A stretch of 64,000 bases of DNA from Heptranchias perlo (Eukaryota): contig NC_090326.1 in NCBI RefSeq assembly GCF_035084215.1, forward strand, positions 16,616,001 through 16,680,000. The letters run 5' to 3'. The notes beneath the pieces are model-generated. The model had not been told where the DNA came from, ran no database searches, and saw nothing but the letters and a program-made list of their open reading frames with translations. Each line of letters begins with the position of its first letter. Within the stretch, counting starts at the first letter, position 1. The translations under genes and the position numbers were made by a program. Below are positions 22,901 to 56,129 of this stretch, one piece after another.

Positions 22901-25900
22901 GGGGGGAGAAAGGGTGTTAATTGACCGATCTTCACAGGTGAATGTACTTTGGCAGGGGGCAACAGAGCCAAACCCGATCCTGTCTCACCCATCATCCACA
23001 CCACTTACATTTCCAGCAAGGATCACTGGCTAGCAATCAATCAGTCACTGCAAACTCTCTCAGTAGCTCTGGGGCACCCGGGCCAATTCTAGCAACCTTA
23101 CTGCAACCCTGGTTGAGATCGGCGAGCTCAGCATAAAGTACGAATTGAACTTGGCAAAAATTCTACCCTCAGCTTCACTGACTTAGCCATCAGGAGAGCC
23201 CCTCTTTCCCCTTTCTGTTGAGTCTCCCCAAGCCATGCATCATCCACAGCTGAGGAAGTAGAAGGACGCCCCTCTGCTGCCAACTACAGGTAGTCATGAT
23301 GTGGAGATGCCGGTGATGGACTGGGGTTGACAATTGTAAACAATTTTACAACACCAAGTTATAGTCCAGCAATTTTATTTTAAATTCACAAGCTTTCGAA
23401 GGAGGAAGCCTCCGAAAGCTTGTGAATTTAAAATAAAATTGCTGGACTATAACTTGGTGTTGTAAAATTGTTTACAACTACAGGTAGGTGAGAGAATAGC
23501 AGTCAACATTGAACAGCACAAAAACTTACGCTAAAATAGCAGAAAGGGAAAGCATCTCTGCAGTGAGGTAGGACAGGTATGAAATGACAAAGACAAATCC
23601 AGGTTCGATTACTCGGACATGCTTGGTGAATCTGGTTACCAGGGACAGCACGAATGCAAAGGCGATGCCAACGGCAGTTCCACCCAGACTTACAACAAAG
23701 AAAGACACTAGAAAAAAAGAAACAGACGATCCCATTTAAAACTTCAGTCTGGTGTCAAAGATGTCAAGCTGCAGTACAGGTGAATAAGGACATTGATCTA
23801 TCGAGATATTAAAAGTATTGCTATCCAGTATTGTAAGAGTGTCAGCCATGGCTCAGTGATAACACTATGGTCTCCGAGTCAGAAGGTTGTGGGTTCAAGC
23901 CCCACTCCAGAGACTTGAACACATAATCCAGGCTGACACCCCCAGTGTAGTACTGAGGGAGTGCTGCACCAGAGTTGCCAACATTTATTGCCCATCCTCA
24001 GTTTAACACAACGGAGTGGCTTGCTAGACCACTTCACAGGGCAGTTAAGAGTCCACATTAGTGTGGGACAGGAGTTACATGTAGACCGGACCAGGTAAGG
24101 ACAACAGCTTTCCTTTCCTAAAAGGACATTAACAGAACCGGTTGGGTAGTACTGCAGTAGTTACCCTTGTGCTGGGTAGTGCTTTCATACCTATGCCTTT
24201 GAAATAGTCCAGGCCATTAATGTTCTCTGCTCCAACTTGAACAAATGAGGCAAAGACATTGTACAGCACCTAAAAAAGGAGAAAAAACGCATCAACATAC
24301 TTTAAAGAACTTTCCTTTTCCGATATGAAAAGGTCCCTGGATTCCATTAGAGCTTTTCATGACATCTTAAATACTGAACGAGAAAGACTCTTTCCTGCAT
24401 GCAGGTACCATGCATACATCGAATGCAAAAAATACATCCTTCATGGGCCATCTTTTAAGGTACAATTAGCACCAGCTGACACTTTGGACTGATCGCAATA
24501 GAAAGTCTCTTAGTTTGGTGGGGGAAAGAGAGAGGAAAAAGGGGCAACAAATCAAATGTGTATAAAAGCAAAGTTACCAGAGAGGAAGAGAGATTTGAGT
24601 GGGGGGGGGGGGGGGGTGCAGTGGAACTGAACCCCATGCAGTGCCCCTCCACTAACTGATACTGGATATTGGGTACATTCACTGGCAATAAGGACAGATA
24701 GAAATACCTACTGTGGATGCTGCACAACAATTGGAGCGTCCAAGACTGAGATTGATAGATTTTTGATAGGTGAGGGTTTCAAGGGAAACGGAGGAAAGGC
24801 ACAGATCAAGCATGATCTAATTGAATGGCAGAGCAGGCTCGAGGGGCTGAATGGCCTCCTCCTGTTCCTAATGTTCTTACTCAAATGCTGGGTATATTTA
24901 GTCAACACTGCTGGATTCGCCTGACTACCAAGGCATGCATCATGGGTTCTGGTTTCTCGCACCTGACCATTTTGCATGACTCTTCTACGCCAGGTCACAA
25001 GGCAGAACATTCTACCTATCCGTTCATCACCAACACGGGACCAATTCGCGGGTCGCCAGCTTGATGCCCAAGGGATCCATCATTAGTTTTATTTTTAAAT
25101 TTTAAAATGTTTCCGTGCACTTTCAAAACGAAAAATTTAAAAACCATGACTCTGACAGCACCCACCCCACCAGTCCTTTATTAGATATGTGCGCAGCTGT
25201 CTGTTCTGCACAAGTCCCAGTCTAGCACTGGACCATGTAATCCAGGCTGACACTTCAGTGCACTACTGAGGGAGTGCTGCATTGTCAGAGGTGCTGTCTT
25301 TTATAATCTGAGGTCCCTTCTGCCCGTTCCTCTGGCTCAGGTGGACATAATAGACCCCACGGCACTCTCAAAAAGAGTAAATGTTTCTCCATCTAGCCTG
25401 GCTGACAGTCTTTCTCAATCAATGTCATCTTGTTACGGTTTGTGGGACCTTGCTGTGCTACCACATTTGCCTACACAACATGGGCTGCACTTCAAAAAGT
25501 GACTGAGCATTTGGAAGCACTTGTAGCATATCCAGACACTAGGATATAGAAATGCATGTCTTCTTTCCAATTCTGAACATTTTTAAAGGTCGGACAGATG
25601 AAAGCAGGCGTATCCAAAAGTGTAAAACATGAAAAATTGTACCTAGCATTTGTAATTTTCCAATACATATGAATAATAAGGAAAGCTGCTGACATGGTGT
25701 CATAACAACAACTAGTTGTACCAGTGTTGTGTCTATAGCTATCACTAGGGGGCACCAAGCCTTTGGAGTTCAGACAACCAGGTTTGACTTGTACAGATGT
25801 TCCCAGATTTCAGCTCTGACAAAGGGTCAATGGCCAAATTGTTAGCTTGTCTCTTCGCAAGTTCCGACAGACCCGGAGTGCATTTCCAGCACATGGAGTC

Positions 25901-54692: not shown

Positions 54693-56129
54693 TTTATAAA
54701 TAGGGGCGTAGAGTACAAAAGCAAGGACGTTAAGATGAACCTTTATAAAACACTAGTTCAGCCACAACTTGGGTATTGTGTCCAGTTCTGGGTGCAGCAC
54801 TTTAGGAAAGATGTGAAGGCCTTAGAGAGGGTGCAGAAGAGATTTACTAGAATGATTCCAGGGATGATGGACTTTAGTTACGTTGTTAGACAGGAGAAGC
54901 TGAGGTTGTTCTCCTTGGAACAGAGAAGGTTGCGAGGAGATTTGATAGCTGTATTTAAATCATAAAAGGGTCTAGACAAAGTAGATAGAGAGAAACTATT
55001 CCCATTGGCAGAAGGAAGGGTCAAGAACCAGAGGACATAGATTTAAGATGATTGGCAAAAGAACCAAAGATGATGTAAGGAAAAACTTTTTTTTTTCAAA
55101 ATAAAAATACAGCAAGTGCTTAGAATCTGGAATGCACTGCCCAAGGGGGTGGTGGAAGCAGATTCAATCATGGCCTGCAAAAGAGAACTGGATAAGTACT
55201 TGAAAAGAAAATATTTGCTGGGCTACAGGGATAGGGTGGGGGAGTGGGACTAGCTGGATTGCTCTTGCATAGAGCCGGCGTGGGCTCAATGGGCCGAATG
55301 GCCTCCTTCCGTGCTGTAACCTCTCTATGATTCGGAATGCCTAGATCGTCGGCTACAAGAGTGTTTGAGCACATCAAAAGCACGAGGAGAATCCACACAC
55401 TGATGGGAAAAAGCGGTTTATTGCTTCAACCAGTAAATTAGGATATTTGGCAAAGACAAAGAAAGCCAAGGCAACCAAGTCAGATTTTCCAGACTGTCCA
55501 AGAATAGGCCCAGTTTTAGGCTTCAGCTGTCTACTCCAACTACACTGGCATGGATTAAGAATACTATTAGCATACCCTCACAACTCCCTGCCTTTAATCA
55601 GGATACCACCGAGGTGGCATGCATGGCTTCCAAGATAGCAAAATAAGTCAGTTAATTTGCCAGTTCTACAGAAAGTCATGCTGCTATCAAAGTGCTGACC
55701 CAAATCCCACCCTTTCAAAACATTGCATGTAGGAGGTGTCATTATTAGATGAGCAGGGAGAATAAACTCATTGACTTAAAGTCAAATCCATGATTTTATT
55801 TTTGCAGAACTTCTGTAGTCTTCAAATTGTGTGTTGTCCGCTTTGGAACTGGAACACTTTGCATTTAAGGCACCCATTACCCTCATTAAGCACTACTAGA
55901 CGCTGATGACCTCCCCCTCCGCACAAGGAATAAAAAGGAAATGAACTTGCATTTCTATCGCATCTTTCAAATCCACAGGAGATTCCAAAGTGCTTCACGG
56001 CCAAAGGATTAGTTTTGAAATGTAGTCACTTATGTAGGGACACGCAGCCAGTCTGCACATTGCAAGGTCTTACAAACAGCAAATGAGAGAAAAATCACCA
56101 GAAAATCTGTTTTCTTGTTGGTGTTGATT

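Follow-up and report, generated by a model that had tools for sequence, protein, structure and literature searches.

Endonuclease-bearing Penelope-like elements (EN+ PLEs) are retrotransposons for which a canonical unit has been described (Pen2a_Av; PMC3846280, PMC8557442): a head-to-head inverted arm, a one-sided tail of 30–40 bp that reaches to the start of the open reading frame (ORF), a target-site duplication (TSD), a pseudo-long terminal repeat (pLTR) with a TATA box and an initiator-like motif, and partial tandems. Within the available text of these papers, TSDs are given as 8–10 bp or none, the inversion is attributed to self-priming and the tail to resolution by the endonuclease; the formation of inverted repeat and tail is stated to be unresolved (PMC8557442, PMC11167929). 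For PAc, a Poseidon element of Anolis carolinensis, both target strands are cut and extended in vitro, which has been modelled as the work of a dimer, and two internal start sites on the RNA bracket the tail (PMC11167929). Here we describe a family represented by three insertions (copies 1–3) in a 64,000-nt stretch of the genome of the shark Heptranchias perlo (contig NC_090326.1, positions 16,616,001 to 16,680,000, forward strand; this whole stretch is called the window below). Judged by their sequence, the insertions are 5′-truncated copies of a Penelope-like retrotransposon of the Neptune/Nematis type. The family has the partial-tandem pLTRs, the inverted 5′ copy, the one-sided 30–40-bp tail and the other features of the canonical unit listed above, so that the class and layout of the element are already known, as are, from PAc in vitro, two start sites and extension on two strands. 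In the shark family the TSD has a fixed length of 12 nt within a mirror-symmetric target and the two arms end at two different points. We consider it probable that a dimeric endonuclease makes a 12-nt staggered cut, that both 3′ ends prime, and that the resulting complementary DNAs (cDNAs) are joined head to head.

Target duplications and arm ends

The family is very numerous: in assembly G000 (3.25 Gb), a 45-nt stretch of the tail has 20,676 exact matches and the arm end 61,141, of which 29,374 run on into the tail. Loci were drawn as sample (i), taken by position, with the 100 exact tail matches that come first on contig C1; sample (ii), 68 long loci picked for a GIY-YIG match or a long frame; and sample (iii), a pool of all 278 loci, which gave 139 two-armed pairs once duplicates were removed. 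Sample (i) comprises 65 copies with an inverted arm and readable flanks, 26 without an inverted arm and 9 that run past the fetched DNA; three of its anchor pairs represent a single insertion or a single duplication. An inverted arm is missing from 26 of the 91 tail copies scored, so the claim of the original prediction that every insertion yields a hairpin does not hold. Element positions are counted from the A of the ORF's ATG, which is 0.

TSDs flank 133 of the 139 pooled pairs, and their mode is 12 nt (lengths 12 to 17: 65, 33, 15, 7, 2 and 4; lengths 10–11: 7). A fixed duplication of 12 nt with chance extension predicts 71, 35, 13, 4, 1 and 0.4 for the same six lengths, so that longer TSDs occur at chance rates and the predicted stagger of about 12 nt, with a mode at 12–13 bp, is upheld. 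In sample (i), 61 of the 65 pairs have a TSD, with 34 of exactly 12 nt, one of 10 and none of 11; among 400 mismatched flank pairs, none reaches 9 nt. The target profile around the 34 exact 12-mers is mirror-symmetric, with a half-site that reads, from the cut, G-N-C-A-N-N-G. The profile was replicated in 27 independent targets (counts on the two sides: C+3, 16 and 15; A+4, 19 and 15; G+7, 15 and 15) and is seen in the 58 non-redundant targets (65 minus 7 similar ones), where, outward from each cut, C+3 occurs 32 and 31 times, A+4 35 and 36, and G+7 30 and 31. G at +1 is enriched too, which is in part imposed by the definition of the 12-mer. Symmetry exists in the 12-nt register only, with a score of 1.68 versus 0.34–0.85 when shifted, and the TSDs are 72% AT versus 50% in the flanks. 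The host site of copy 3 (54441–54452), which lies in an old repeat that we take to be CR1-like, matches the target motif, and independent insertions into it also occur at four other loci (L049, L106, L243 and L252).

The two arms end at separate points on the element. On the tailed side the TSD starts between −2 and +12 (mode +1), and on the tail-less side between −42 and −33 (mode −36). At either end the TSD shares on average 1.44 nt with the continuation of the element, compared with 0.41 and 0.60 in shuffles, none of which (0/5000) is as high as observed; the shared bases fall on the TSD end expected to act as 3′ primer. Tail-less one-armed copies make up 14 of the 68 long loci, and 6 have a TSD of at least 10 nt. 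End microhomology, tail-less one-armed copies and the genome-wide share of arm ends that run on into the tail (29,374 of 61,141) together argue that −36 is a start site in its own right, comparable to the two internal start sites of PAc. The start-site region folds no better than its shuffles (z −0.76).

Source of the two arms and competing explanations

The original prediction derived both arms from one template by fold-back synthesis; the single source is largely supported, but fold-back copying from it is not. Arms differ by 1.08 changes within an insert versus 4.15 between inserts (114 pairs), minor alleles that mark lineages are shared by both arms 204 times and confined to a single arm 53 times, and in 34 of 45 long pairs the arm most similar to a given arm is its own partner. 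If the TATA box is taken as the divide, 66 pairs comprise 51 short/short, 15 long/long and no mixed pairs, where 23 mixed pairs are expected (this count omits L044, a duplicate of L043; L058 and L139, whose anchor is an internal tandem junction; and L152, with a broken outer end). Five of 14 long pairs have arms ending within 15 nt of each other, compared with 0.5 expected. These sequence comparisons point to one RNA as the source of both arms.

Copying of one arm from the other had been argued from variants private to a copy and mirrored in both arms. Substitutions private to a locus are instead mostly confined to a single arm (40, with 4 mirrored). The TTCCAC/GTGGAA variant of copy 3 is unique only within the window; it is a subfamily marker that recurs in L123, L157 and L162 and has 38 identical genome matches among those listed. 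The arms of copy 2 are likewise not mirror copies: they differ by 6.7%, show opposite CpG decay, and only one of them carries a 35-nt inversion. The inverted segment is flanked by short inverted ends; the inversion is absent from the other loci (278), 108 of which have the normal form.

Arm lengths bear most directly on fold-back, in which a cDNA, or an antisense template through self-priming (the proposal of PMC3846280), would turn back on itself and serve as its own template for the second arm. In its favour are arm lengths that differ by no more than 7 nt in 32 of 61 pairs, near-perfect palindromes in 5 of 14 long pairs, lineage variants common to both arms and short snap-backs at junctions. 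The tail-less arm, however, is longer by at least 8 nt in 21 of the 61 pairs and in 11 of 23 simple long pairs, including copies 1 and 3 (5′ ends, tail-less versus tailed, −116 versus −101 and −137 versus −132), and a snap-back of tailed cDNA cannot account for these. The tailed arm is longer in 8 of the 61 and 10 of the 23 pairs, for which self-priming on an antisense template fails. Fold-back also leaves unexplained the fixed −36 end with its microhomology and the tail-less solo copies and, with the excess of single-arm private variants, it is refuted as a general rule; we regard it as an unlikely source of the second arm. We give equally little weight to a two-step route, in which priming by the second end at −36 comes later than and independently of the first, with either a DNA copy or another RNA from the same source locus as template. 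It would give the same end microhomology, and it suits both the pairs in which the own arm is not the closest and the uncorrelated lengths of long arms in the long set (rho −0.19), but it does not sit well with the lack of mixed short/long pairs or the surplus of equal-length long pairs, and a DNA template made from the first cDNA could not yield a longer tail-less arm. That the paired arms arose by later gene conversion, from two independent insertions or as assembly artefacts is very improbable: inverted repeats can convert, and no empty site was seen in other individuals, none of the contigs from three runs compared with copy 1 spanning its site, but in 133 of 139 pairs the two arms lie within a single TSD, post-insertion changes are unmirrored and host paralogues display the empty site.

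The junctions between arms are varied. Overlaps of 1–8 nt occur in 29 of 61 pairs and most of the others have filler; several fillers copy nearby sequence, among them the 8-nt snap-back of copy 2. Fillers of 27–62 nt are found in L052, L039, L148 and L138, and 54 of the 62 nt in L052 are copied from adjoining host DNA. One inverted pair, L043/L044 (G000:C1:2375376–2379060), has tails on both arms, one of which extends into the ORF. All 72 central junctions compared are different, which implies that each hairpin was made anew, and the proposed seeding of palindromes resembling miniature inverted-repeat transposable elements (MITEs) fails on this point. The idea that copying acts on the short palindromes themselves, as non-autonomous units, could draw on their very high copy number and on the similar size of many copies; it is contradicted by the distinct junctions, by the lack of a TATA box in short copies and by a size mode equal to the predicted RNA 5′ end, and is largely refuted and scarcely credible. 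Membership of the MITE class was rejected, as no common structure moves as a unit: junctions are distinct, insertions range from 0.1 to over 5 kb, and the tail lies outside the inverted repeat.

The short hairpins instead likely end by run-off at the 5′ end of the transcript, as far as this can be predicted from sequence. Among 122 short arms, 67 end at −140 to −126, and the peak lies 28 to 31 nt after the TATA box (33 of 103), at the initiator-like TCATTTC in subfamilies A–C. Hammerhead cleavage was rejected as the cause of truncation because only one of the 122 arms ends at the cut site. A pLTR promoter has been shown for Drosophila Penelope, where it is TATA-less (PMC2377424).

The reading that we prefer, priming at both cut ends, would run as follows. 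An endonuclease, presumably dimeric, would cut both strands 12 nt apart at the centre of the mirror-symmetric target, and both 3′ ends would prime reverse transcription, probably with one RNA as their common template. The end that primes at the ORF start would yield the tailed arm, and the one that primes about 37 nt upstream the tail-less arm. The two cDNAs would extend toward one another, each stopping independently, and be joined head to head, probably by host end-joining, through 1–8 nt of microhomology or a short templated filler. With priming on the 5′ pLTR, both cDNAs would run off the RNA 5′ end some 30 nt past the TATA box, leaving hairpins of 200–250 bp (copies 1 and 3); priming on the 3′ pLTR would give long arms (copy 2).

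Several observations weigh against this reading, for which the evidence consists of genomic end products. Seven of the 139 pairs have TSDs of 10–11 nt and six have none, and in copies with a single arm a clear TSD is often missing: a wide search found one in 13 of 22, compared with 5 of 300 in the control. Microhomology is nil at 6 of 34 and 7 of 34 ends. In 11 of 45 long pairs, including copy 2, the closest arm is not the partner, and the two arms were given different subfamily references in 5 of 39 pairs. Thirteen of the 122 short arms reach beyond the predicted start on its upstream side, and one-subfamily genome probes across that start drop only from 11,521 to 7,585, which is not a clean step (a third probe, limited by variants, gives 4,669). 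Local fold-back does occur at junctions, as in the 8-nt snap-back of copy 2 and the internal inversions of seven long loci. PAc prefers 5′-ATT-3′ (PMC11167929), unlike the dyad site of the shark family, and Frangieh et al. describe a start site that is alike on both strands for PAc. In the seven long loci (L096, L169, L177, L181, L188, L194 and L226) an extra 80–550-nt stretch of the element, inverted or displaced, lies between the arms, as if the cDNA had hopped or turned before joining.

Whether PLEs in general insert in this way, with a homodimer at a dyad site making a 12-nt cut in the manner of homing endonucleases and the same RNA being copied from two fixed starts, is a suggestion that we make tentatively. 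If it is correct, the inverted pLTR, the tail and the TSD would be the normal product of one reaction, and two-ended priming would take the place of second-strand synthesis.

The three insertions and their element family

The inverted repeats of the three inserts lie where the original prediction had placed them, and the common end point of the arms is borne out by an arm-end motif with 6 matches in the window, all within the three inserts (chance expectation 0.01). A direct repeat flanks each insert, and in two cases the host is restored by removal of the insert, as had been proposed: paralogues within the window cross the sites of copies 2 and 3 and have the TSD once. These hosts are presumably L2 and CR1; a paralogue of the copy 1 flanks was not found within the window. 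In the 13-nt TSD of copy 1, probably 12 nt were duplicated and one further base agrees by chance. A tail is present in all three copies, as proposed, but its end varies: in copies 1 and 3 it lies about 4 and 7 nt, respectively, into the ORF start, and that of copy 2 is at about −2.

Table 1. Parts of the three insertions; positions are those of the window
Feature	Position	Strand	Remarks
Copy 1 left TSD	23281..23293		CAACTACAGGTAG; 13 nt in common
Copy 1 tail-bearing arm	23294..23398	−	Element −101 to about +3; A of ATG at 23297
Copy 1 tail	about 23298–23332	−	Inside tail-bearing arm
Copy 1 inverted repeat	23334..23402 / 23409..23477		69 nt
Copy 1 tail-less arm	23398..23477	+	−116 to −37; 5′ end 15 nt beyond tailed arm
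Copy 1 right TSD	23475..23487		CAACTACAGGTAG; overlaps final CAA of tail-less arm
Copy 2 left TSD	46156..46167		TCAAATTTTAAA; 12 nt, within older host repeat; paralogue has site once
Copy 2 inverted repeat	46166..46445 / 46833..47121		256 nt and another 25 nt
Copy 2 tail-less arm	46168..46445	−	About −314 to −37
Copy 2 segment inverted in place	46325..46359		35 nt; left arm only
Copy 2 junction filler	46446..46453		8 nt, reverse complement of element at 5′ end of tailed arm; short snap-back
Copy 2 tail-bearing arm	46454..47153	+	−702 to about −3: ORF end, 3′ untranslated region (UTR)/pLTR, tail
Copy 2 C-terminal GIY-YIG endonuclease frame	46454..46788	+	VVY..C..C..YIG, R, H, H motifs
Copy 2 TATA box, followed after about 28 nt by initiator-like TCATTTC	46991..47022	+	Predicted pLTR transcription start; function suggested by sequence
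Copy 2 putative minimal hammerhead	47029..47069	+	Stem I, CUGAnGA, stem II, GAAA, palindromic AGCU
Copy 2 one-sided tail	47121..47155	+	−35 to −1; bounded by the family's two recurrent 3′ ends
Copy 2 right TSD	47154..47165		TCAAATTTTAAA; first TCA common with element
Copy 3 left TSD	54441..54452		TTTATAAATAGG; 12 nt; host-repeat site hit repeatedly in genome
Copy 3 tail-bearing arm	54453..54591	−	−132 to about +6; ATG at 54459; hammerhead motif
Copy 3 inverted repeat	54494..54592 / 54596..54694		99 nt
Copy 3 tail-less arm	54592..54692	+	−137 to −37; hammerhead motif; 5′ end at predicted transcription start
Copy 3 right TSD	54693..54704		TTTATAAATAGG; first TT common with element

Assignment to the Penelope-like elements, proposed in the original prediction, is supported by the GIY-YIG frame of copy 2 (Pfam PF01541, E 4.3e-4; at 21 bits it lies below the cut-off of 22.6) and by an intact copy, L092, which is the full-length reverse transcriptase (RT) and GIY-YIG partner that had been sought. 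The 902-aa ORF of L092, with its ATG at the end of the tail, matches RVT_1 (E 4e-10) and has DKG and YIDD motifs as well as a GIY-YIG domain at its C-terminus. Its CCHH motif (C796, C800, H820 and H836, the two cysteines lying between GIY and YIG) is kept in 34–35 of 35 aligned relatives, and the linker before the endonuclease, C753-x4-C758-x2-C761 (CX4CxxC), is invariant in all 35. A CX2-5CxxC linker in this position defines Neptune and Nematis and is absent in Penelope and Poseidon according to PMC8557442. By this definition the element is of Neptune/Nematis type, and membership of Penelope/Poseidon was rejected on account of the linker. The closest named proteins are from sharks (80–95% identical), and at least five subfamilies are separated by their 3′ UTR. 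No solved structure related by sequence to the family protein was found. L140 (G000:C1:9082665–9089209) is a full-length unit that has 5′ and 3′ tails, an open frame some 900 codons long and an inverted tail-less arm of 2.1 kb, and it shows the complete canonical arrangement. In the run X5 contigs of a second organism (window:22800–24000), ORF words reach 0.41 and pLTR cover is almost nil at 85% likeness.

The hammerhead motif of the family lies at about −127 to −86. Its stems I and II fold in L142, and core and stems match the minimal hammerhead type described in PMC4209133. In the tail-bearing arm of copy 2 the GAAA is mutated at its G, and an Rfam scan of copy 2 gave no matches up to E 10. 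Elsewhere in the window, self-alignment reveals a tandem repeat at 17596–17858 with a period of about 72–78 nt, a crowd of older repeats over 3604–63178 that includes many SINE-like copies of about 400 nt, and long LINE-like fragments, such as 10516–11776, which matches 40491–41755.

Comparison with described retrotransposons

The shark family differs from the canonical EN+ PLE accounts in its fixed 12-nt TSD, compared with the 8–10 bp or none reported there, in its mirror-symmetric target and in arm lengths that argue against self-priming. It resembles Neptune and Nematis in a C-terminal endonuclease with a CCHH motif and a CX2-5CxxC linker and, unlike the account of these clades in PMC8557442, no targeting of microsatellites was seen. 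With PAc it shares an RT with a C-terminal GIY-YIG endonuclease, a hammerhead upstream of two starts that bracket the tail, a main template other than the hammerhead-cut RNA, and a distal start about 120 nt from the hammerhead core (the PAc value was worked out from the text of PMC11167929). PAc is of Poseidon type and has its ORF start inside the hammerhead, whereas the shark family has the CX4CxxC linker and its ATG at the end of the tail. In PMC11167929 the two start sites are not tied to inverted arms as far as its available text goes, and that text gives no stagger, although the figures may show one. The literature searched contained no account of a fixed stagger, of a dyad target or of double priming as the origin of inverted arms; older PLE papers beyond it may treat TSD length or models.

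Separate copying of the arms from two cut ends would account for an insertion shape that has long been known and has lacked an explanation. With its young insertions, which number in the tens of thousands, its intact ORF, and a target and two starts that are defined, the family makes the PLE integration step testable at the bench: a 12-nt 3′ overhang, extension of both strands and a single RNA are predicted. For annotation, the 200–250-bp hairpins would be dead-end products and should not be taken for MITEs.

LINE-1 twin priming offers a further comparison. There, both target strands prime cDNA, the cDNAs are joined head to head through microhomology and a TSD results; the internal site at which the second primer acts varies, and there is no overlap between the two cDNAs. 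In the shark family, by contrast, the second primer appears to act at one fixed site and to recopy the same stretch, and such a recopied second arm is present in about two thirds of tailed copies.

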